IMG/VR virus record: IMGVR_UViG_2703718815_000003
Length of the DNA: 64,000 nt
Origin: a virus
Taxonomy: Duplodnaviria > Heunggongvirae > Uroviricota > Caudoviricetes
Reading direction: 5' to 3' (one strand)
This document shows, piece after piece, positions 1,501 to 45,488 of this stretch. Under the pieces are notes generated by a model, which saw only the letters and a program-made list of their open reading frames with translations, did no database searches and was not told where the DNA came from. The position numbers and the translations under genes are program-made. Numbering within the stretch: the stretch's first letter is position 1; each line of letters begins with the position of its first letter.

Positions 1501-1782
1501 TTAGTGGAGCAGACCGATGTCGATGGTATCCCCTGAATCATCCACACGGATCATCAGCATGGCAAAGGCGTTTAGTGGATAGCTTGCGTGCCATTCAGGG
1601 AAGCGGTCATCTCGCATGAAGTCGGCAATGTCGTAAACGCATCCCTCAAAGTGGAAGAATCGCGTGCTTACCTGCTCGTCATAATCCACATGATCCATTT
1701 CTTGCTGTTCTGTTTCCGGCAAGTCCAGCCATGATTCAAGGAATACATTTTGTGCTTTAGGGGTAATGGTGAAATCAGTCAT
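1501..1782 (-). CDS. hypothetical protein (93 aa)
   Basis: Track ORF 1501..1914 trimmed to ATG preceded by GAGGA; longer version would overlap class I motif. Confidence 0.5.
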   Translation of the reverse strand: MTDFTITPKAQNVFLESWLDLPETEQQEMDHVDYDEQVSTRFFHFEGCVYDIADFMRDDRFPEWHASYPLNAFAMLMIRVDDSGDTIDIGLLH

Positions 1783-1801
1783 GAGCATATCCTCACTGCG
1801 T

Positions 1802-1834
1802 AAACATATTGTTTTCTTGTTGGTGTAATTATCG
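1802..1834 (-). promoter_or_regulatory. class I palindromic motif
   Basis: aaacatattgttttcttgttggtgtaattatcg. Confidence 0.5.
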
Positions 1835-2117
1835 CAGTGTAGATAAGGCATAAAAGAAGTTAATACAGGCTGAATACACAAGAAAGGTTCTGGAAGTTGA
1901 TAGCCAGGTTTCAAACTAACCTTCGGTTATTAAAAGTCATTTAAGACCACCAATGCTGGTGGCCTTAATAATTATCGCCCGATTACGCTAAGGATCTTTT
2001 CCTCAACTGATTTGTTGTTGCGACTAAACTGCCTTGCGTATCTGATGACAGAAGAGGCGTTTCGCTTTCTGACCATCTCGGCTCTCTCCTTCAGGCGTTT
2101 CTTGAAATCGCCCATAT

Positions 2118-2492
2118 TTACCACCAGGCGCAGAAGGTCAGTCTGTTATTGTGAAAGTCGTGGTTCTTAATCAGATCTTCCACAAGCTCTTTCAACTCCC
2201 CCACATCATGCCAGTAACCTTCATCGTACTCCTGACTGCCGAAGAAAAAACCTTCCCGGGTAGGCAAGTACTCTTCGCAATTACTTTCGTTTATGTGCAT
2301 CAAATGAGCCTTCAGAAAACAAATGTCATTCATCGTTAATTCTAAAAGCTCACAATTTTCGACTTCACCTACGTTGCGCTCCATCCACCCAACGAGCGCA
2401 TTGAACTTACGGAAGTAAGCAACCTGCTTTCTGGATGCCTCGTTATTCAGATCGTTTTTAGGCTGTGTCTCGATATAGATATCAAGTCCCAT
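2118..2492 (-). CDS. hypothetical protein (124 aa)
   Basis: Track ORF (GTG start at 2534) trimmed to ATG with AAGGAAA RBS. Confidence 0.5.
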   Translation of the reverse strand: MGLDIYIETQPKNDLNNEASRKQVAYFRKFNALVGWMERNVGEVENCELLELTMNDICFLKAHLMHINESNCEEYLPTREGFFFGSQEYDEGYWHDVGELKELVEDLIKNHDFHNNRLTFCAWW

Positions 2493-2550
2493 GATGGTTT
2501 CCTTATTAAGTTGCTTCAGTGAAATCATTTTCACAAATCAGATAAGGCAG

Positions 2551-2566
2551 AAAACAAATTGTTATC
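2551..2566 (-). promoter_or_regulatory. class I palindromic motif
   Basis: aaaacaaattgttatc. Confidence 0.4.
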
Positions 2567-2577
2567 GGGCATAAGAA

Positions 2578-2606
2578 AATGGCGCGGTTTACGCGCCATT
2601 CAAAGA
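2578..2606 (-). terminator. rho-independent terminator
   Basis: ggcgcg...cgcgcc stem with T-run on minus strand, downstream of 2610..3005. Confidence 0.5.
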
Positions 2607-2609
2607 GGA

Positions 2610-3005
2610 TTAAGCGAATACGCTTTCAGGGATTAAGGTGTCAGCAGGAATGCCAGAGGTAATGCGCAGGCCGTACTGACCAATCCAGGTAGTGTTGGTA
2701 TTCAGGTTGGAGGCGAATACGGTGTTAACCATATTCATCATGGTTTCAAACACCTCTTCATCAACCTGGCGGAAGTAGTTCTCGATTTTCAGCAGCAGCG
2801 GGTCAGTTGCATCGAGAATGGACTGGTATTGAGTCGCGTACTCGCCGCCGGAGGCATCACCTTTACGCACGATCGTACTGGCCTGGACTTCGGCACCAGT
2901 TTCGGTGTTGTGCGTAACAACGGTGATTTTTGCCACATTCTTACCTTCGGCGGTTTCAGAGGCATAGTAAACATCAACTGTCAGTTTTTCGCGTTTAACG
3001 GTCAT
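2610..3005 (-). CDS. hypothetical protein (131 aa)
   Basis: Track ORF trimmed to ATG (MTVKREKL...) preceded by GGAGAG. Confidence 0.5.
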   Translation of the reverse strand: MTVKREKLTVDVYYASETAEGKNVAKITVVTHNTETGAEVQASTIVRKGDASGGEYATQYQSILDATDPLLLKIENYFRQVDEEVFETMMNMVNTVFASNLNTNTTWIGQYGLRITSGIPADTLIPESVFA

Positions 3006-3044
3006 TTCACTCTCCGTAGTGTTTTGGTTATTTTTATATTCTAT

Positions 3045-3064
3045 GATAGTAAGTATGTACTTAC
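3045..3064. promoter_or_regulatory. class II palindromic motif (TAAGTA..TACTTA core)
   Basis: gatagtaagtatgtacttac; family of about 15 AT-rich palindromes upstream of genes. Confidence 0.45.
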
Positions 3065-3131
3065 AATACAAAAAAGCCCCGTAAGGATGGCGGGGCTGTC
3101 GTACTGTCGACTAATTGCCACTTGCACATTA

Positions 3132-3443
3132 TCAGGCTATTGCCATCACTGATGCTCTCTGAATCTCTTGCTGGGCCACGCGGTTAACTTCCATCAAAGC
3201 CAGTTCGAGCTGATGTTCCGGCCACATTCTTTGAAATGCCACCCAGCCTTTTCCACGCTGGCGACGAACATTCATTACATAACGAGTAAAGGTGTTTTTA
3301 TCGAAAGATACCGCTGTTTCACGGAACAGACGAATAGAGGTTCCATTGGCAACGATGTCCAGCAAAGTTAATTGAGCAACCAGCGCAGGCTTCTCTTTTC
3401 TCTTCTGGTCTTTGTCCAGACCAAGAACCAATGATTTTTTCAT
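3132..3443 (-). CDS. hypothetical protein (103 aa)
   Basis: Track ORF trimmed to ATG (MKKSLVLG...) with GGAG RBS. Confidence 0.5.
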   Translation of the reverse strand: MKKSLVLGLDKDQKRKEKPALVAQLTLLDIVANGTSIRLFRETAVSFDKNTFTRYVMNVRRQRGKGWVAFQRMWPEHQLELALMEVNRVAQQEIQRASVMAIA

Positions 3444-3454
3444 TACAACTCCGT

Positions 3455-3470
3455 AAACAACTTGTTTTCT
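3455..3470 (-). promoter_or_regulatory. class I palindromic motif
   Basis: aaacaacttgttttct. Confidence 0.5.
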
Positions 3471-3596
3471 CAATGGCGTAAATAATACCAGTAAGAAAAC
3501 GGCTACAAAGCATATTGATCAGGCGCATGAGCGATATGCAGGTTCTTCCCTGCGGCTATAGAGAAATTAAGCCAGCAATGCTGGCTTTGGTTGGGG

Positions 3597-3926
3597 TTAC
3601 TCGAATACTTCAAGAAACTCCTGAACGTCCCAATGCTGGACGAGGTGAAGATAGACCTTAGAAATCACGTCATTTTCGCTATCGCATGTGAAGTAGTACT
3701 TCTGGCTGCGGTTGTATGTGTCCACACAAAATTCGCTCATATCCATAAAGTCAGCATCTTCACCCATGTCGCAAATCATCAAAGCAGGTGCGTCATCACG
3801 AGTCATCAGCTCAAGCACCCACCGCGAATTGATCAGAGTGGAAGACCAACCTTCTAACTCATAAAACTGATCAAACTCTTTTTGAGTTAATTTCTTGATT
3901 TGGTTGATGTCGATATTTGCAAACAT
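3597..3926 (-). CDS. hypothetical acidic protein (109 aa)
   Basis: Track ORF trimmed to ATG (MFANIDIN...) with AAGGA RBS; D/E-rich. Confidence 0.5.
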   Translation of the reverse strand: MFANIDINQIKKLTQKEFDQFYELEGWSSTLINSRWVLELMTRDDAPALMICDMGEDADFMDMSEFCVDTYNRSQKYYFTCDSENDVISKVYLHLVQHWDVQEFLEVFE

Positions 3927-5436: not shown

Positions 5437-6171
5437 TTACATAGTTTTGTTTAGCAGAGAGAGAATTTCATCACTAATTTCACTCGCCTGTTTGATAGCC
5501 AATGCAGTTACCTCTTCTATGGTTGGTGACTGTTGATGCTCATGTTTGGTTTCAGTTATGACAATGTGTTCTTCACCTGAATTTGCGCATAGTGCCGCAT
5601 TGACGATAAGGTTTGAGTAAGAATTTAGCAGAGCACTGTTGATGAACGCTTTCACGGTATTACTGTCTGCACCAAATACATCTTTTCTGACCGCTTCAGC
5701 CTCACAGCGAACCCCTGCAGCAACATCGTGAAGAACATGTATGGCCTTGGAGCTTGTTTGTTCACAGTACTCAATCATTATTGTCGAATTGTTCTGTTCA
5801 ACAAACGATCTGATGCCTGACGATTCACCCATAGCATCGAAGGCAGCATGACCCGCACTGGTAGAGATATCTTCATAGAGTTCTTCATCGCTATCTTTTT
5901 CTTCAGGTGTCGAGGTGTCTTCATCGTCGTAATAGATATTGCCTTTAATCAGTGTCTTGGACACTTGATATAAACAATAAGAAACGAGATTTAAGCATTG
6001 GATTTTAGCTGTATTGTCCTTTGTCGCCTCGCTCTTCAGTTCTTTCGCTTCTTCAGTAAGGCTGTTGATAAGACTTTGTATTTTTTCCAACGCGTTAGGC
6101 GCACACTCCGCGTTGTCCATAAAGAATTTATAACCAGTCCCAGGGATTTCTAAACTTTTCAACTTTTTCAT
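5437..6171 (-). CDS. hypothetical protein (244 aa), AT-rich
   Basis: Track ORF with ATG start. Confidence 0.5.
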   Translation of the reverse strand: MKKLKSLEIPGTGYKFFMDNAECAPNALEKIQSLINSLTEEAKELKSEATKDNTAKIQCLNLVSYCLYQVSKTLIKGNIYYDDEDTSTPEEKDSDEELYEDISTSAGHAAFDAMGESSGIRSFVEQNNSTIMIEYCEQTSSKAIHVLHDVAAGVRCEAEAVRKDVFGADSNTVKAFINSALLNSYSNLIVNAALCANSGEEHIVITETKHEHQQSPTIEEVTALAIKQASEISDEILSLLNKTM

Positions 6172-6216
6172 TTCTTTGATAATCCTAAAAACAAACTACC
6201 AATGCTTTAATATCTG

Positions 6217-6516
6217 TTACCAGTTCCAGCACTCAAGCCCTTCAACGACCGGCGCACCACAATCAAAATGTACAGAGTCAAAGCCTACATCAAGTACTTT
6301 CTGAATGTTAGCAATCGCGCCTTCGGATATACCATATCGACGCAAGTCGTCTTTCCAGACATCATTCTGTAACCCGGCGTGAACAATACAACCGCCATCA
6401 ATTTGTGAAACCCAATCCAGCTCATTGCTTGCGATCATGAATCGGCGAGCATCTTCCTCTGATGTATGAGATGAACTGATCAATGCCACCTGGTAGGCTT
6501 GGGTAATGTTCAACAT
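6217..6516 (-). CDS. hypothetical protein (99 aa)
   Basis: Track ORF; two class I motifs upstream. Confidence 0.5.
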   Translation of the reverse strand: MLNITQAYQVALISSSHTSEEDARRFMIASNELDWVSQIDGGCIVHAGLQNDVWKDDLRRYGISEGAIANIQKVLDVGFDSVHFDCGAPVVEGLECWNW

Positions 6517-6528
6517 TTCAACTACTCC

Positions 6529-6545
6529 AAAACAAGTTGTTTTCT
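6529..6545 (-). promoter_or_regulatory. class I palindromic motif
   Basis: aaaacaagttgttttct. Confidence 0.5.
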
Positions 6546-6578
6546 TATGTGGCTTATTATCTCAATCAACAAAAGGTA

Positions 6579-6595
6579 GAAAACAAATTGTTTTA
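6579..6595 (-). promoter_or_regulatory. class I palindromic motif
   Basis: gaaaacaaattgtttta preceded by aaaaggtag (same extension as copy near 15015). Confidence 0.45.
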
Positions 6596-6626
6596 GGGCT
6601 TGTGTAAATCAGGAGGGATTGTGTCT

Positions 6627-6657
6627 ATATGAAAATGCCCAGCGTGTTGCCGGGCAT
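6627..6657 (-). terminator. rho-independent terminator downstream of metG
   Basis: atgcccagc...gccgggcat stem followed by T-run on minus strand. Confidence 0.6.
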
Positions 6658-6677
6658 TGTGAAAAATGGTTGTTTAG

Positions 6678-8711
6678 TTACTTAACTTGGTGGCCTGGTT
6701 TAGCACCAGCATCCGGGCTTAACAGGAAGATATCTTTTCCGCCAGGGCCAGCAGCCATCACCATGCCTTCGGAGATACCGAAGCGCATTTTACGCGGTGC
6801 CAGGTTAGCCACCATAATGGTGTGACGACCAATCAGTGCCTGTGGGTCTGGATAAGCAGAACGGATGCCTGAGAAGACATTGCGTTTTTCACCGCCGAGA
6901 TCCAGCGTCAGGCGCAGCAGTTTGTCAGAACCTTCAACAAACTCTGCGTTTTCGATCAGTGCCACGCGCAGGTCAACTTTGGCAAAGTCGTCAAAGGTGA
7001 TGGTTTCCTGAATCGGGTCGTCTGCCAGCGGGCCAGTAACTGGCGCGGCAGCTGCTTTCACTTCTTCTTTGGATGCTTCCACCAGTGCTTCAACCTGCTT
7101 CATATCGATGCGGTTATACAGTGCCTTGAACGGATTCACTTTATGGCCCAGCAGCGGTTGCTGGATACCATCCCAGGTCAGTTCTGTATTCAGGAATGCT
7201 TCTGCACGTTCAGTCAGTTTCGGCAGTACCGGCTTCAGGTACGTCATCAGCACGCGGAACAGGTTAATGCCCATAGAGCAAATCGCCTGCAGATCGGCAT
7301 CGCGTCCTTCCTGCTTCGCCACCACCCACGGAGCCTGTTCATCGACATAGCGGTTAGCCAGGTCAGCCAATGCCATGATTTCACGGATAGCTTTACCAAA
7401 TTCACGGCTTTCCCATGCTTCGCCAATCACTTCAGCGGCATCAGTAAAGGTTTTGTACAGTTGCGGGTCAGCCAGTTCGCTTGCCAGCACGCCGTCAAAA
7501 CGCTTGTTGATAAAGCCTGCATTACGGGAGGCCAGGTTAACCACTTTGTTCACGATATCGGCATTCACGCGCTGAACGAAATCCTCCAGGTTGAGATCGA
7601 TATCATCAATGCGCGAAGAGAGTTTCGCAGTGTAGTAGTAACGCAGGCTGTCAGCGTCAAAATGATTCAGCCAGGTGCTGGCTTTAATAAAGGTGCCGCG
7701 AGACTTGGACATCTTCGCGCCGTTCACCGTCACATAGCCGTGAACAAACAGGTTGGTCGGCTTGCGGAAGTTGCTGCCTTCCAGCATGGCAGGCCAGAAC
7801 AGGCTGTGGAAGTAAACAATATCTTTACCGATGAAGTGGTACAGCTCGGCGGTGGAGTCTTTCTTCCAGTATTCATCGAAGCTGGTGGTATCGCCGCGCT
7901 TGTCGCACAGATTCTTGAAGGAACCCATGTAGCCAATCGGCGCGTCCAGCCAGACGTAGAAATATTTGCCCGGCGCGTTCGGAATTTCAAAACCGAAGTA
8001 GGGCGCATCTCGGGAGATATCCCACTGTTGCAGGCCGGATTCAAACCATTCCTGCATTTTGTTCGCCACCTGCTCCTGCAACGCGCCGCTGCGGGTCCAT
8101 GCCTGCAACATTTCGCTGAAAGAAGGCAGATCAAAGAAGAAGTGTTCGGAATCACGCATTACCGGGGTAGCGCCAGAAACCACCGATTTCGGCTCGATCA
8201 ATTCAGTCGGGCTATATGTTGCGCCGCAGACTTCACAGTTATCGCCGTATTGATCTGGCGCTTTACATTTCGGGCAGGTGCCTTTTACAAAACGATCCGG
8301 CAGGAACATGCCTTTTTCCGGGTCGTACAACTGAGAGATAGTGCGGTTTTTAATAAAACCGTTCTCTTTCAGGCGAGTATAGATAAGCTCAGACAACTGA
8401 CGGTTCTCTTCGCTGTGCGTCGAGTGATAGTTGTCATAGCTGATGTTAAAGCCTGCGAAATCAGTCTGGTGTTCCTGACTCATTTCGCCAATCATCTGCT
8501 CCGGTGTGATACCAAGCTGCTGTGCTTTCAGCATGATCGGCGTACCGTGGGCATCGTCGGCACAGATGAAATTAACCTCGTGGCCGCGCATTCGCTGGTA
8601 ACGAACCCAGACATCAGCCTGGATGTGCTCCAGCATATGGCCGAGGTGGATTGAGCCGTTAGCGTACGGCAGCGCGCACGTCACCAGAATTTTCTTCGCG
8701 ACTTGGGTCAT
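6678..8711 (-). CDS. metG: methionyl-tRNA synthetase
   Basis: Track ORF trimmed to ATG ([26 protein letters not shown]...); KMSKS motif (GAKMSKSRG); C-terminal tRNA-binding domain; enterobacterial-like, about 677 aa. Confidence 0.95.
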
Positions 8712-8868
8712 AGTAGGCATTACTTCTTTGTAGTGAAAAGGGGCTTGATAGTAACAAAATGGCCTTATGTCTGCCATGTGATAACAGCATTTCTCATAAA
8801 TGATTAAATGTCGTAGCTGGAGTACACTACAAGGCGACAATTGCGCAAATTAAAATAAAGGAGACGGG

Positions 8869-9969
8869 ATGAGCGAGTCCAAATCGCCGGATGCCCTGAG
8901 AGCAATGGTAGCCGGTACGCTGGCTAATTTTCAGCACCCAACCCTGAAACACAACCTGACTACGCTTAAAGCGTTACACCATGTTGCGTTGATGGATGAC
9001 ACACTGCATGTCGAACTAATCATGCCTTTCGTGTGGAATAAGCCTTTTGAAGACCTGAAAGAGCAATGTAGTGGTGATCTGCTCCGTATCACTGGCGCAA
9101 AGGCTATTGACTGGAAGCTGTCGTACAACATTGCCACGCTTAAGCGCGTCAAAAACCAACCAGGCATTAATGGCGTTAAGAACATTATCGCCGTCAGCTC
9201 AGGCAAGGGCGGCGTGGGTAAATCCTCCACGGCGGTAAACCTGGCACTGGCGTTGGCTGCTGAAGGTGCGAAAGTTGGTATTTTGGATGCCGATATCTAT
9301 GGTCCATCAATTCCAACCATGCTGGGCGCGGAAAACCAACGTCCAACCTCACCTGACGGTACTCACATGGCACCTATCATGTCTCATGGCCTGGCAACCA
9401 ACTCTATTGGTTATCTGGTCACCGACGACAATGCAATGGTGTGGCGTGGACCGATGGCGAGCAAGGCGTTAATGCAGATGTTGCAGGAAACATTGTGGCC
9501 TGATCTGGACTATCTTGTTCTCGATATGCCGCCGGGCACTGGTGATATTCAGTTGACGCTGGCGCAGAACATTCCTGTAACTGGTGCTGTTGTGGTAACT
9601 ACGCCGCAAGACATCGCGCTGATCGATGCGAAGAAAGGCATTGTGATGTTCGAAAAAGTCGAAGTGCCGGTACTTGGTATCGTCGAAAACATGAGTGTGC
9701 ATATTTGCAGTAACTGCGGTCATCACGAGCCAATTTTTGGCACCGGTGGCGCAGAGAAACTGGCCGAGAAATACAACACGCAGTTGTTAGGCCAAATGCC
9801 ACTTCATATCTCTCTTCGTGAAGATCTGGATAACGGAACACCAACCGTTATTAGTCGTCCAGATAGTGAATTTACGGCTATTTATCGTGACCTCGCAGAT
9901 CGCGTTGCTGCCCAAATGTATTGGCAAGGTGAAGTAATACCTGGCGAAATCGCATTCCGCGCAGTGTGA
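8869..9969 (+). CDS. apbC: Mrp/ApbC family Fe-S cluster carrier ATPase
   Basis: 366 aa; Walker A SGKGGVGKS; CxxC near C-terminus; divergent from metG as in enterobacterial chromosomes. Confidence 0.9.
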   Translation: MSESKSPDALRAMVAGTLANFQHPTLKHNLTTLKALHHVALMDDTLHVELIMPFVWNKPFEDLKEQCSGDLLRITGAKAIDWKLSYNIATLKRVKNQPGINGVKNIIAVSSGKGGVGKSSTAVNLALALAAEGAKVGILDADIYGPSIPTMLGAENQRPTSPDGTHMAPIMSHGLATNSIGYLVTDDNAMVWRGPMASKALMQMLQETLWPDLDYLVLDMPPGTGDIQLTLAQNIPVTGAVVVTTPQDIALIDAKKGIVMFEKVEVPVLGIVENMSVHICSNCGHHEPIFGTGGAEKLAEKYNTQLLGQMPLHISLREDLDNGTPTVISRPDSEFTAIYRDLADRVAAQMYWQGEVIPGEIAFRAV

Positions 9970-9970
9970 T

Positions 9971-9996
9971 AAAAAGGCGGTGCATTGCACCGCCTA
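9971..9996. terminator. hairpin terminator between convergent genes
   Basis: ggcggtgca tt gcaccgcc stem flanked by A-run. Confidence 0.5.
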
Positions 9997-10006
9997 ATCA
10001 GTTCTC

Positions 10007-25580: not shown

Positions 25581-26225
25581 CTAATGAACGGTCACTCGGC
25601 CACAGAACCGGTTTTCTATCTTTTCTACAGCGTTATCTAGCATTCTCATCACTGATCTGGCTCTTGCTTCAACCGTGCGATATCGGTTGGAAACGACGAA
25701 GGTTTGCAGATCTCCCCTTTGCGGATGCAGGTGAATTTTTGTCAGTTCCCCGCACATCAACGCATCAATACGAGCGACATACAGACGGTCTAATGATGCT
25801 CGTTGTGATCGCAAGTAATCTCGCTCTGAGAGAGCGACTCCCGGGCGTAAGCCAGCAATGGCGTTAAAGTTTGAAATAGCAGTTTTGTGGCAAAACTTTT
25901 CGATATCGAGGGCTAACTCAATACACCGATCTTCATTTGTATGGCCGACCAAATCCAACGTGTAGGCCATAACATCAGCAGGTGTGCGATCGATAACAAA
26001 GCCTTCAACACCACGCGTAAGTAGCTCTATATGCTTTGCTATTTCCATTTGAATCTGAAGCCGCTCATATAGAGGCATAGAATCACCTACTCGAACACCG
26101 AGGCGGCTCATCAAACTTCCGACACCAGCATCCACGTAAGGGATTCCGTAATGTTTGTCGATATATTTAGCCAGGGTTGTTTTCCCACTGCCCTGAGCAC
26201 CAGTGATCCCAATCCGGTAATCCAT
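25581..26225 (-). CDS. P-loop nucleotide kinase (dNMP kinase-like), tentative
   Basis: 214 aa; N-terminal IGITGAQGSGKTTLAKYI Walker A; within nucleotide-metabolism cluster. Confidence 0.55.
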   Translation of the reverse strand: MDYRIGITGAQGSGKTTLAKYIDKHYGIPYVDAGVGSLMSRLGVRVGDSMPLYERLQIQMEIAKHIELLTRGVEGFVIDRTPADVMAYTLDLVGHTNEDRCIELALDIEKFCHKTAISNFNAIAGLRPGVALSERDYLRSQRASLDRLYVARIDALMCGELTKIHLHPQRGDLQTFVVSNRYRTVEARARSVMRMLDNAVEKIENRFCGRVTVH

Positions 26226-26701
26226 TACGACCTTCTGTATACGATCTGCGAAAAGCCAGGCTCTTCCTCGCTGGCTCGTTGGGTATAAGCTGTTTCAACA
26301 GGCACAAAGCCTAAATTACGCATCATGCTTGCCGGGAAGAATGCATCGGCGTTTGGCACATCAACGCCGATGTGGGAGAGCCAAATCTCTTCAACATGCG
26401 GCATGAATAGCGAGTAAATTTGTTCCCCGCCAATCACCCACACAGGCTCTGGTAATCGCAACACATCATCCACACCAGCAGGGTAGAATCCATTTGGTAC
26501 AAAGCCATGAGAGCGCGTCAAAACGAGGTTATGACGCTCTGGAAGAGGGCGTTTGAGACTTTCCATCGTTTTACGCCCCATAACGACAGTGGCGTTTTTG
26601 GTGAGTCTCTTAAATAGCTTCAGATCGGTAGAACAACGCCAGGGGAGTTCATTCGCTATGCCGATCTCATAGTTACGGCCAACAGCAGCGATCATCTTCA
26701 T
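26225..26701 (-). CDS. folA: dihydrofolate reductase
   Basis: 158 aa; MIAAVGRNYEIG...LPW...VMGRKT...WVIGG pattern. Confidence 0.85.
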   Translation of the reverse strand: MKMIAAVGRNYEIGIANELPWRCSTDLKLFKRLTKNATVVMGRKTMESLKRPLPERHNLVLTRSHGFVPNGFYPAGVDDVLRLPEPVWVIGGEQIYSLFMPHVEEIWLSHIGVDVPNADAFFPASMMRNLGFVPVETAYTQRASEEEPGFSQIVYRRS

Positions 26702-38580: not shown

Positions 38581-38610
38581 GCCGCGCCACGACTGGTCTG
38601 AAGCCATGTT

Positions 38611-38720
38611 CATGTATGCTGTCAGCGGTAATTGATAGTCTGTCAGCGGTTCACCGTATGCTGCCAACTGTTTTTGGTATTCTGTCAGCGGCAAATCAAG
38701 TATGCTGTCAGCGGTTGAAT
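38611..38720. repeat. iteron array upstream of repA (about 5 copies TATGCTGTCAGCGGT)
   Basis: Direct repeats, same orientation, ending about 15 nt before repA ATG. Confidence 0.75.
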
Positions 38721-39830: not shown

Positions 39831-40365
39831 TATGCTGTCAGCGGTGAAATGTATGCTATCAGCGGCTATTTTTCTGAAAAGTATGCTGTAAACGGTTAAA
39901 TATATGCTACCAGCGGTATAGTGAGATGAACGTATGCTGTGGGCGGTAAATCATCTATCACCACTCAATGCTCTGTCATACCTCCCCAGTGGTTACTAAC
40001 CTCGAAGAGTGCATTCCATATAGGTTTGCGCTCACTAACATTCTATTGCTATTGCGCTGATTGCTTGTAGTGAAAGGCATTTATTGCCTGCTGCTCCCTG
40101 ATAGAACGTATGCTGTCAGCGGTGTTTTATTGAGGAATTTTTGTTTGGATATGCTATCAGCGGTAATTAATGGTATATGTCAGACCTTCGTATGCTGCCA
40201 GCGGTAATTTTGTTCTGGTTATACCCATACCGGTACACATTATTCATGCAATGTCTTAAGTATGCTGTCAGCGGTAAAAAATCGAGTAAAGTATGCTGTG
40301 AGCGGTGAGATAGACTCTCGATATGCTATCAGCGGTAGTTGATTGTGTATGCTGTCAGCGGTGAC
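39831..40365. repeat. iteron array downstream of repA (about 12 copies TATGCT(G/A)(T/C)(C/G)AGCGGT)
   Basis: Same 15-bp core as upstream array, irregular 15-35 bp spacing, same orientation. Confidence 0.75.
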
Positions 40366-43148: not shown

Positions 43149-45488
43149 TTAATCTTCTAGTTCTTCTGTTGGTGATGTCTTCTCTCGTCGGTCATCTATC
43201 GTCTGTAAAGCCGCAATGATTTCAGCTAGTGGCTTCTCCCGATACATCTCGACGATCTGTGATTTGGTGTATTTCTTGTCACCAATTTCAACTCGCCCGC
43301 TGGCGTTCTTTGGCAGGTATCCTTCTTCCAGCATGTACTCGACGAGCGACTCGATAACGTCGAGGCCACGAGTAGGATCGAAGTAGAATTTCCAGGTGCA
43401 TTTGCCATACGGTGGTGCAACTTTGTTTTTGATGCACTCTGCGCCTACGTCCTGACCGATCTTCTCTTTCCCATCCTTCATCACCGATGCACCGAGACGG
43501 ATGCGCACAGAAGCGTAAAACTTCGGTGAATCGCCGCCTGGCGACGTAGTAGGGTCGCCAAACATTACACCGATTTTTGTGCGAACCTGATTCAAGAAGA
43601 TGATGCAGGCGTTGTATTTGCGTGCCCACAAAGCCAGAGTAGGGAAGTTCGCACTCGTCGCACGAGCCAGTGCCGTATTGTCGTTCATGTTCAGCTGATC
43701 TTTGTCTTTGGCAGTGCCTTCAGCCATCTTTTCGAACTTCTCGGCTTTGGAGTTCGGAACCATAGACGCAAGTGAGTCAGCCACGATACAGATAGGTGCT
43801 GATTCAGGAATAAGCTCTTCATCACGTACCAATTTAAGAATTGTGCCGATCAACTCTACAGAGTCTTCGAAGGTATCAGGCTGCTTGTATACCCACTGAC
43901 CGTCATCCTCATCTGCGTTCAGACCATTGGCGACAGCCAGGCCAACGTCAAAACTGTTTTCATGATCGAGGAATACCGCCAGACCATCTTGTTTTTGAGC
44001 GGAGATCATCGCTGCTGTTGCAAGGAATGTGTTGTGGCTGATAATCCCGTTAGACCAGAAAGAGTGTGTTTCCGGCATCGCTACGTCGAACGTTGGTGCT
44101 TCACCTTCCTCAATAGCCACGACTTCGTCGTAGAACAAGTTAGAGCCAATTACCGCTGCCAGTTGTGCAAACAGATGCTCGTTAAAACGATTCTTTCTGC
44201 CAATGAAGGAGACATAGATTTCTCGCAGTTTGTCTATTCCGACACGATCGCCGCGGCCAATAACGTGGTCTACCAGAGCGTAGTCTTCACGGGTGGTCTT
44301 GGTGAGCGACTCGTAGAGTGATTTCACTAAGCCGCTGATGTGCGGAACATAGCCTGAGTAAGTGCGGTCAAAACCAATGTCCCGTTTGGTTGCCACTGAT
44401 AAACGTGCCGGAGATTCGAAACCAATCGTTGACAGAAAAAGGTCGTAATTAGAGCCACTGAATGACAGCCGGTAATATGTATTTTCATAACCCGCGACGT
44501 GTTTTTCAGAGATAGTTGACGTAATCCCCAGATTCAGGAGCATGAGGCGAATTTGCTGTAGCAGCAGCCCACTCGCGCTCACAACCTCAATGCAGCGACC
44601 ATCATTGACGTGGCATTCCAGCTCAAAGTAGCCGCGAAGGAATGCAATTTGAGCCTCGCTATTGGCGCGACGCACACTCAACGGAACCTGCTTGCCAGCA
44701 GCTTTCTCATACTCCAGACCATATTCTTTAAAAAGCAGCGAACGCACCTCTTTGCTAAACAGCACATGGTCTTCCGAGCCGTTATGTTTTCTCGTAACTG
44801 GCATCTTGTCTGATACCAGCGAAATGAGGCGGTAGTACTCATCCTTGATGAAAGGATCTGTGTTAGAAAAATTCACTGAATTTTCAGAGGCCACGTATCC
44901 GTCAGCAATTAAATAGCCCATCAGTTTTGCGATATTGGCATCCAGGTGCTGATCGCCGAATTGATGTGTGCCAACCATTGAAGGAATCGTGTCGCCTACA
45001 CTGATTTTTTCAGCATGTCGCCAGACGACATTACCTAAGTCGTCAACCACACGGATTGGGTGACGGAACGTAGCCTCGATATAACCGCCTGATGCCAGCT
45101 TAATACGCTTGAATTTGCGACGGTTGTTCCATGTCAGGTGTGAGGTCTTCTCTATCACGCCATTTTCATTGATGAGTCCAACGTTATGCTCTACATCGCG
45201 AGTAGTGCATGTCGCTTTGTACCCTTCAATCTCAAACAACTCTTTCACTGTTACCATTCCACGCTCCGTCAGCAGCATGGTGTCTGCGGTAACACATTTC
45301 CCTGCACTTGGAGGACCGAATACTTCGACGATACGACCACATGGGAAGCCGCCATCGTAACGACCGGAAATAGCTTTGTTTAACGGTGGAAAGCCTGTAT
45401 CAATCCAATGAGTTACTTTCTGAATTTCGTCGTTGCTACCGATTTTCTTTTTCAGAGCAAGTGCCAGTGCGGATTTTCCTTTTGCCAT
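43149..45488 (-). CDS. recA: RecA-family recombinase interrupted by an intein (precursor 779 aa)
   Basis: N-extein ...GRIVEVFGPPSAGK then Cys; C-extein collinear with RecA (FLNQVRTKIGVMFGDPTTSPGGDSPKFYASVRI); exteins total about 357 aa. Confidence 0.85.
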   Translation of the reverse strand: MAKGKSALALALKKKIGSNDEIQKVTHWIDTGFPPLNKAISGRYDGGFPCGRIVEVFGPPSAGKCVTADTMLLTERGMVTVKELFEIEGYKATCTTRDVEHNVGLINENGVIEKTSHLTWNNRRKFKRIKLASGGYIEATFRHPIRVVDDLGNVVWRHAEKISVGDTIPSMVGTHQFGDQHLDANIAKLMGYLIADGYVASENSVNFSNTDPFIKDEYYRLISLVSDKMPVTRKHNGSEDHVLFSKEVRSLLFKEYGLEYEKAAGKQVPLSVRRANSEAQIAFLRGYFELECHVNDGRCIEVVSASGLLLQQIRLMLLNLGITSTISEKHVAGYENTYYRLSFSGSNYDLFLSTIGFESPARLSVATKRDIGFDRTYSGYVPHISGLVKSLYESLTKTTREDYALVDHVIGRGDRVGIDKLREIYVSFIGRKNRFNEHLFAQLAAVIGSNLFYDEVVAIEEGEAPTFDVAMPETHSFWSNGIISHNTFLATAAMISAQKQDGLAVFLDHENSFDVGLAVANGLNADEDDGQWVYKQPDTFEDSVELIGTILKLVRDEELIPESAPICIVADSLASMVPNSKAEKFEKMAEGTAKDKDQLNMNDNTALARATSANFPTLALWARKYNACIIFLNQVRTKIGVMFGDPTTSPGGDSPKFYASVRIRLGASVMKDGKEKIGQDVGAECIKNKVAPPYGKCTWKFYFDPTRGLDVIESLVEYMLEEGYLPKNASGRVEIGDKKYTKSQIVEMYREKPLAEIIAALQTIDDRREKTSPTEELED
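44031..45296 (-). mobile_element. intein with LAGLIDADG homing-endonuclease domain inserted in RecA P-loop
   Basis: About 422 aa between GK and T; starts Cys, ends His-Asn, +1 Thr; LMGYLIADGYV and FLRGYFELE motifs. Confidence 0.8.

Follow-up and report, generated by a model that had tools for sequence, protein, structure and literature searches.

The present analysis concerns a pair of host-like genes within IMG/VR record IMGVR_UViG_2703718815_000003, a 64,000-nucleotide stretch of DNA from a virus of the Caudoviricetes that is referred to here, at its full length, as the window. The element is an SSU5/pHCM2-type phage-plasmid of the pECOH89/pLF82 "Cyrano" subgroup, and positions 6678-9969 of the window carry metG, encoding a methionyl-tRNA synthetase (MetRS), together with the divergently transcribed apbC (mrp), encoding an iron-sulfur (Fe-S) cluster carrier. 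The data make it probable that these genes form a cassette that was captured once from an enterobacterial chromosome, has since diverged, has been subject to conversion by chromosomal alleles and is kept by selection. A first-pass annotation of the same DNA had already read the pair as host-chromosome cargo lying inside a phage-plasmid backbone, and this holds: backbone sequence lies on both sides, and the related plasmid pBL12EC-1 has the same flanks without the block. Beyond that annotation, the evidence points to one capture, made long ago, and metG is still recombining with the chromosome.

Both genes are present at full length, as had been noticed at first pass for metG, with equivalog models matched above their cutoffs and motifs intact. 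On the minus strand, metG (6678-8711) encodes an intact methionine--tRNA ligase of 677 amino acids, which scores 1019.9 bits against the NCBIfam equivalog NF001100 (cutoff 587; residues 4-677), matches all of PF09334, PF19303 and PF01588, including the C-terminal tRNA-binding domain, and over residues 1-552 matches the sequences of the E. coli MetRS crystal structures 1F4L, 1QQT and 1P7P. The HLGH (residues 22-25) and KMSKS (333-337) motifs and the zinc cysteines (C146, C149, C159 and C162) are those of the K-12 enzyme, from which the protein departs by seven conservative differences (99% protein and 94.3% DNA identity). At 99% identity to a characterised enzyme, the plasmid MetG would be expected to aminoacylate tRNA-Met. 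On the plus strand, apbC (8869-9969) encodes a P-loop NTPase Fe-S cluster carrier of 366 amino acids that scores 759.7 bits against the equivalog NF008669 (cutoff 348), matches the solved structure 8ZKC over residues 2-366, and keeps both the deviant Walker A motif GKGGVGKS and the CXXC cluster motif (C280-S-N-C283). Its overall identity to K-12 is 95.3% in protein and 82.6% in DNA, and residues ~90-296 are 100% identical to K-12 Mrp.

The limits of the captured DNA are sharp. Similarity to the K-12 chromosome is confined to 6678-9965, bounded by the stop codons of the two genes, and neither the K-12 terminators nor the neighbours yehE and yehF are present in the cassette. In their place, a left junction segment (6608-6677, minus strand) holds a terminator-like hairpin for metG at 6634-6658 (fold -16.9 kcal/mol, z -5.5), and a right junction (9970-10006) holds a hairpin at 9975-9995 that would act as a terminator on both strands, common to the convergent apbC and humD. 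Neither hairpin, nor the junction sequence around it (6596-6680 and 9966-10010), had a match in K-12 or in 80 sampled enterobacterial chromosome loci (one genome per species, among the matches listed). The left segment is kept in all cassette-bearing elements sampled, a short-query BLASTN search returning plasmid loci only, and the right hairpin is kept in eight plasmid loci. As both junction segments are conserved among the copies and absent from the sampled chromosomes, a single capture is implied, and since they occur in none of the 80 chromosomes, the donor lies outside that sample. Between the genes, alignment and short-query BLASTN delimit a spacer of 157 bp (8712-8868) that is 95-100% conserved among plasmid copies. 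Approximately 70 bp of it beside metG are near-identical to K-12 while the apbC-proximal part has diverged and carries indels, so that the switch in divergence sits within the spacer, ~70 bp upstream of the metG start codon. The suggestion that the pair was captured with its intergenic region and terminators thus survives in part: the metG-side spacer is near-identical to K-12, whereas the E. coli terminators were not captured. The cassette junctions showed no insertion sequence (IS) element, no att site and no direct repeats on either side.

Outside these limits the sequence is that of the element. To the left lies a DUF5983-domain gene (6217-6516, minus strand; PF19419) and to the right humD (10007-10396, minus strand; NF051876), 89% and 91% identical, respectively, to their counterparts in the cassette-free pBL12EC-1, in which similarity runs to ~6607, resumes from 10007, and a DUF4145 gene replaces the block. 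This alternative occupant was found in only five PLSDB plasmids. The block also stands apart in composition (G+C 50-52%, against 41-47% in the flanks). In some members of the family a third essential, translation-related host gene, der (ribosome-biogenesis GTPase), sits in the same slot directly after apbC, as in the E. marmotae YF8 plasmid NZ_CP072690.1 (5963-7435 of the locus extract), where no humD is annotated at the usual place, and in the E. coli plasmid NZ_CP148383.1 (77866-79595). This der copy is ~91.5% identical to the chromosomal gene, and the similarity ends at the stop codon.

Window positions 6000-10600 are 96-98.5% identical to circular E. coli plasmids of ~108 kb and to the phage records Cyrano, CMS-2020a and PhiR41_1, and the backbone is 98% identical to pEC332_01, Cyrano and CMS-2020a. 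The family was collected from 5426 complete E. coli genomes, PLSDB plasmids and phage genome records, and the block with both of its junctions was recovered in 209 complete E. coli genomes, ~195 PLSDB plasmids and four phage genomes. The backbone dnaE occurs in 244 of the 5426 genomes, always on a plasmid and at no chromosomal place. These counts bear directly on the two alternatives raised at first pass, an assembly chimera and an integrated prophage with ordinary chromosomal flanks. Housekeeping genes are unusual on a phage and the higher G+C of the block could be taken to favour either, but identical junctions recur in unrelated projects, which excludes a chimera, and the flanks are backbone whose dnaE is plasmid-borne in 244/244 genomes, which excludes chromosomal flanks. 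Moreover, the apbC allele differs by 17% from that of every E. coli chromosome, and so is not co-assembled host DNA. We accordingly give these two explanations next to no credence.

Chromosomal metG and apbC are retained in 5426/5426 genomes, and the plasmid genes are therefore second copies, as the first-pass annotation had supposed for metG. Plasmid-type apbC, counted at an identity of at least 90%, is present in 216 records in the complete E. coli genomes (~216/244). With PLSDB included, where the share is ~86%, the cassette is carried by ~86-88% of Escherichia and Shigella members. Plasmid places in the complete genomes number 219 for metG and 222 for apbC. In PLSDB, plasmid-type apbC occurs in 197 plasmids (190 from Escherichia, six from Shigella and one uncultured). 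The backbone dnaE is found in 686, including 215 from Klebsiella, 92 from Enterobacter, 63 from Yersinia and 49 from Salmonella, and no plasmid-type apbC was present among the PLSDB members from Klebsiella, Enterobacter, Yersinia, Salmonella or Citrobacter. Within the cassette-bearing lineage the backbone dnaE differs by up to 10%. The family is present in ~4.5% of complete E. coli genomes and often carries CTX-M genes. The short record of Salmonella phage S.Kent 1-2-1 (OR850913.1, 5272 bp; 84% identity to the metG-apbC query) seems to represent a piece of the Salmonella chromosome, possibly transduced or a contaminant, and not a phage gene.

The family also includes decayed, plasmid-only derivatives of the phage-plasmid, exemplified by the 62-kb E. 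albertii plasmid p2014EL-1348-1 (CP043239 and CP043251 are similar). The gene list of p2014EL-1348-1 has neither tail nor head genes and neither nrdAB nor thyA, insertions of IS911 and hdeAB are present, dnaE is split by an HNH endonuclease, and polysaccharide deacetylase and GNAT genes stand at the humD position to the right of the cassette. These 62-kb derivatives keep metG and apbC intact though phage structural genes are unlisted, and this retention favours a benefit in the plasmid state, with the qualification that the PLSDB gene table is incomplete and the gene lists of these plasmids serve as support only.

The two genes have had markedly different histories. In codon alignments, plasmid apbC is 82.6% identical in DNA to K-12 and 81.7% to Citrobacter, with a synonymous divergence (dS) to K-12 of ~1.45, which is saturated. 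All plasmid copies fall into a single, long-branched clade. Their G+C at third codon positions (GC3), 0.51 compared with 0.60-0.62 for the chromosomal genes, would fit a long stay in an element richer in AT. As to origin, ApbC as a query against 5.8 billion proteins was uninformative, as clustering at 90% merges the plasmid and chromosomal forms. By contrast, plasmid metG is 94.3% identical to K-12 and 87.5% to Citrobacter, its GC3 is unchanged, and its copies, which differ from one another by up to 7%, are not monophyletic but interleaved with Escherichia chromosomes. Sliding windows reveal stretches of plasmid metG that are 98-100% identical to certain chromosomal alleles and 88-94% identical to other plasmid copies. 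In PhiR41_1, metG nucleotides 1068-1965 follow an F17EC0245-type E. coli allele at 56/59 informative sites, against 15/64 outside; in CMS-2020a (SCU-175), nucleotides 330-825 are K-12-like at 33/35 sites, against 15/77 outside; and in an E. albertii plasmid, nucleotides 387-1125 follow the F17EC0245-type allele at 37/42 sites, against 9/81 outside. The bounds of these tracts were picked post hoc and Fisher p-values are inflated, such that the effect sizes are what is relied upon. To judge from these site patterns, plasmid metG appears to have been gene-converted repeatedly by the chromosomal alleles of its hosts, in tracts of 0.5-0.9 kb, and the E. coli allele tract now residing in an E. albertii plasmid indicates that the element has also passed between species. 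In apbC only one short candidate tract was found (PhiR41_1 nucleotides 483-600, chromosomal-type at 10/13 informative sites), which may be a rare conversion tract in an otherwise plasmid-type gene; in the tree of apbC, PhiR41_1 and pRM9975 fall together. Such scarcity is expected if a divergence of 17% now blocks homologous recombination.

The conversion tracts could be given another meaning, namely that metG is carried as a homology arm, allowing recombination with the chromosome for transient integration, for mobilisation of chromosomal DNA or for the shuttling of metG alleles among strains and species. The E. coli chromosomal tracts themselves, one of them now residing in an E. albertii plasmid, can be read in this way, as can PhiR41_1 metG, which in the E. 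coli collection is matched best by chromosomes, that of E2348/69 among them, and not by other plasmids. However, no integrated backbone was found among the 5426 complete genomes, and no chromosome was seen there whose metG is plasmid-type throughout, identity to chromosomal copies reaching 94.6% at most. Conversion is, in addition, an expected by-product of any 2-kb region at 94% identity, and a homology arm leaves the purifying selection on apbC unexplained. We regard this role as improbable, and return to the proposal of a selected cassette.

The evidence for selection is strongest for apbC. Among nine plasmid copies used for trees and selection estimates, apbC occurs as nine distinct DNAs encoding two proteins, with a mean dS of 0.10 (up to 0.18) and a ratio of nonsynonymous to synonymous divergence (dN/dS) of 0.005. 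The same nine elements encode nine MetG variants at a dN/dS of 0.014. No apbC was broken in the 11 elements sampled for intactness. Expression points in the same direction. In overnight lysogeny broth (LB) cultures of lysogenic LF82, apbC (CYRAN_99, annotated as 'septum site-determining protein') was transcribed 9-fold above local background and listed as a moron (PMC9928086), and normalised counts in S1 Table of that study are 91.7 for CYRAN_99, 16.1 for the MetRS gene CYRAN_100 and 148 for humD (PMC9928086). Of the two genes, apbC is thus the more strongly conserved and the more strongly expressed.

Several observations weigh against the reading of a single old capture kept by selection, at least as it applies to both genes. 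In one of the 11 sampled elements (E. albertii plas1) metG is frameshifted, remaining intact in 10/11, so that metG is dispensable at least sometimes; its low dN/dS is partly imported through conversion from chromosomal alleles that had already been purified; and in LF82 its transcription is only ~1.6-fold the rough level of silent structural genes, i.e., approximately background, with reads that may be shared with the chromosomal copy. Approximately 12-14% of Escherichia members are without the cassette. As to the capture itself, a donor lineage was not found, the best apbC match being E. coli and then Citrobacter among the matches listed, and how deep this gene branches within the genus is not fully bounded, as E. 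albertii, E. fergusonii and E. marmotae chromosomes lie outside the 80-locus sample. Finally, the benefit, probably that of an extra supply of the two proteins, has conservation as the whole of its argument. In the E. albertii plasmid NZ_CP099888.1 (metG region at ~1680-3713), in which metG appears to be frameshifted, tblastn aligns MetG residues 1-392 only and no metG coding sequence is listed, while ApbC is intact and identical in protein to the family consensus.

These points lend themselves to two competing explanations. The first holds that the cassette is a neutral passenger, an accidental capture that hitch-hikes without benefit to element or host, for which one may cite the frameshifted metG, the low metG transcription in LF82 and the minority of relatives with other cargo in the slot. 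Against this, apbC keeps a dN/dS of 0.005 over dS values reaching 0.18, with two proteins among nine DNAs; retention is ~86-88% across a lineage in which dnaE differs by as much as 10%; the cassette is intact in the decayed 62-kb derivatives; and a phage limited by packaging should lose 3.3 kb of useless DNA. Neutral carriage is therefore unlikely. The second holds that apbC is the sole selected cargo, with metG linked through the shared divergent promoter region and kept intact mainly by chromosomal conversion. ApbC is essentially invariant against nine MetG variants among the nine copies, transcription in LF82 is 9-fold for apbC and close to background for metG, the sole pseudogene seen is a metG, and it is in metG that conversion tracts are demonstrated. 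Because the data lean toward apbC in these ways, this explanation is kept as a serious rival. It must, however, accommodate a metG that is intact in 10/11 elements and present at nearly as many plasmid places as apbC (219 vs. 222), the entry of der into the same slot, which hints at selection for translation functions, and the fact that conversion alone cannot prevent deletion of metG. Selection on apbC alone is thus possible, and well ahead of neutral carriage, yet clearly less likely than the retention of both genes.

The favoured reading can be set out as a model. It proposes that metG-apbC was copied once, long ago, from a chromosome of the Escherichia-Salmonella-Citrobacter group and landed in the variable DUF5983-humD slot of an Escherichia-specific branch of SSU5/pHCM2-type elements. 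There, apbC would have drifted to intergeneric distance and toward the lower G+C of the element, while patches of metG would have been overwritten, via homologous gene conversion, by the chromosomal alleles of Escherichia hosts. Expression may be driven from the cassette's own divergent promoter region, outside the palindrome-controlled operons of the phage. Bearing on this last proposal is the distribution of the palindrome GAAAACAANTTGTTTTC, of which the window contains 14 copies (0.76 expected) and the interval 6600-10000 none. A consensus promoter scan returned no site in the metG-apbC spacer. Retention would be explained if an extra supply of MetRS and of an Fe-S carrier benefits either the lysogen or the replicating phage, which would fit the element's other host-like supply genes, i.e., the four tRNAs, nrdAB, thyA, dfrA, grxA and dnaE. 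More speculatively, MetRS, ApbC, the four tRNAs and sometimes Der may constitute a selected 'host-support' module that alters lysogen physiology or lytic yield, with a multi-copy metG that moves alleles between Escherichia strains and species; we advance this extension tentatively and with a good deal less confidence than the model itself. Such a module could mask recessive metG alleles for tolerance or persistence, or sustain Met-tRNA charging during induction.

An alternate function for metG would be protective, either as a back-up MetRS against toxins or defences that strike initiator tRNA or the charging of Met-tRNA, i.e., a counter-defence, or as an inhibitor-resistant synthetase. A toxin-antitoxin pair of the GNAT (TacT/KacT) type is indeed found in relatives of the element and is strongly expressed in LF82, and inhibitor-resistant second synthetases borne on plasmids are a known kind. 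However, seven conservative differences make an altered sensitivity of MetG to inhibitors or toxins unlikely, and extra charging does not undo the acetylation or cleavage of a tRNA. A protective role is very doubtful, more so than neutral carriage. Inhibitor resistance in particular was considered and rejected, in that MetG is 99% identical to the host enzyme and is matched by the ordinary equivalog and not by an 'exception' model.

Further features of the window place the cassette in its setting. Copies of GAAAACAANTTGTTTTC lie at 1315, 1800, 2550, 3453, 3937, 5088, 6528, 6579, 15015, 19555, 20284, 30506, 41944 and 55621, mostly in gaps between open reading frames (ORFs) of a region of small genes, and the palindrome probably serves a putative backbone regulator as its operator or as a promoter element. 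By motif count, two copies (6528-6544 and 6579-6595) lie upstream of the DUF5983 gene, just left of the cassette, with those at 15015, 19555 and 20284 to its right, which bears out the earlier remark that the same palindromes occur on both sides. Two other features singled out then as typical of an element were likewise recovered. The UmuD'-like gene with a LexA box is humD, upstream of which a perfect box, TACTGTATACACATACAGTA, at ~10413-10432 overlaps a promoter-like site (10457-10429), and the iteron replicon corresponds to iteron-like repeats on either side of the rep ORF (38610-38715 and 39831-39940). The larger ORFs line up with the replication and nucleotide-metabolism genes of the annotated relative; annotation of pEC332_01 lists repA, dnaE, nrdAB, thyA, dfrA51, grxA, four tRNAs, a TacA/GNAT toxin-antitoxin pair and tail genes. 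A tRNA cluster at 59852-60398 (minus strand) encodes the same four tRNAs as in pEC332_01, Ser(TGA), Thr(TGT), Tyr(GTA) and Asn(GTT), and lacks a tRNA-Met although a MetRS is carried. Within the nucleotide-metabolism block of the backbone, a dihydrofolate reductase gene (26225-26701, minus strand) matches the model for DfrA51, a trimethoprim-resistant form, at 338 bits (cutoff 322). A 779-residue ORF (43149-45488, minus strand) encodes a RecA-like recombinase with an intein or homing-endonuclease insert, for which the relative's annotation gives a LAGLIDADG homing endonuclease only. Relatives of the element form virions: PhiR41_1 is on deposit as a phage whose host is K-12, and for phage Cyrano, which is pLF82 (accession OV696614), virions were demonstrated by quantitative PCR and electron microscopy and ciprofloxacin gave a 39-fold induction (PMC9928086). 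The copy number of Cyrano in LF82 is 5.5 per cell (PMC9928086).

Most elements of the family thus give the cell approximately five extra copies of the genes for an essential translation enzyme and an Fe-S carrier. If these copies matter, they could bear on how a lysogen copes with methionine, iron or oxidative stress, on phage yield, and on the ease with which tolerance evolves via metG. A reduced supply of MetRS has been found to raise persistence (PMC11004401). An extra wild-type copy could mask alleles that have this effect. The contrast between a frozen apbC and an overwritten metG offers a natural example of a divergence threshold that limits gene conversion between plasmid and chromosome, and illustrates that a phage-plasmid can bring the allele of an essential gene from one species into another. 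It is mostly in this contrast, and in a possible physiological effect within a widespread family, that the interest of the cassette lies.

The cassette as such is already known, in that hundreds of entries in RefSeq and GenBank have it annotated and its apbC, under a different name, already figures as a moron in the literature. It is a recurrent annotated feature of a known element, and host-derived auxiliary genes on phages and plasmids are already a known kind. In the literature on SSU5/pHCM2/pLF82-type phage-plasmids, no paper was found on the synthetase or the cassette, its origin or its evolution, and the cassette goes unmentioned in the pECOH89 announcement, in a survey of phage-plasmids and in a preprint of 2025 devoted to clinical phage-plasmids. 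To our knowledge, viral synthetases have mostly been reported from giant viruses and very large phages, and not from temperate coliphages of ~108 kb. Among known systems, the closest are the Cyrano/pECOH89-type elements themselves (CMS-2020a, PhiR41_1, pEC332_01), which carry the same cassette with the same junctions and of which the window represents another member; the Cyrano record annotates the MetRS and lists apbC under 'septum site-determining protein'. The K-12 metG-mrp pair (b2114/b2113) resembles the cassette in gene order, divergence, protein lengths and motifs and differs in its spacer, which is 131 bp in K-12 and 157 bp in the cassette. Second synthetases that give inhibitor resistance include MupA, MupB and MetRS2. 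The isoleucyl-tRNA synthetases MupA and MupB are likewise second synthetases on a mobile replicon, but they are divergent and inhibitor-insensitive, unlike the plasmid MetG, which scores 33 bits against the MupA/MupB models (cutoff 1900), a distant class-I similarity only. With phage morons and auxiliary genes in general the cassette shares being host-like, dispensable for making virions, absent from a syntenic relative, bounded by hairpins and partly transcribed in lysogeny. It departs from the usual moron in that its cargo includes an essential translation enzyme, one still close enough to the host copy for recombination.

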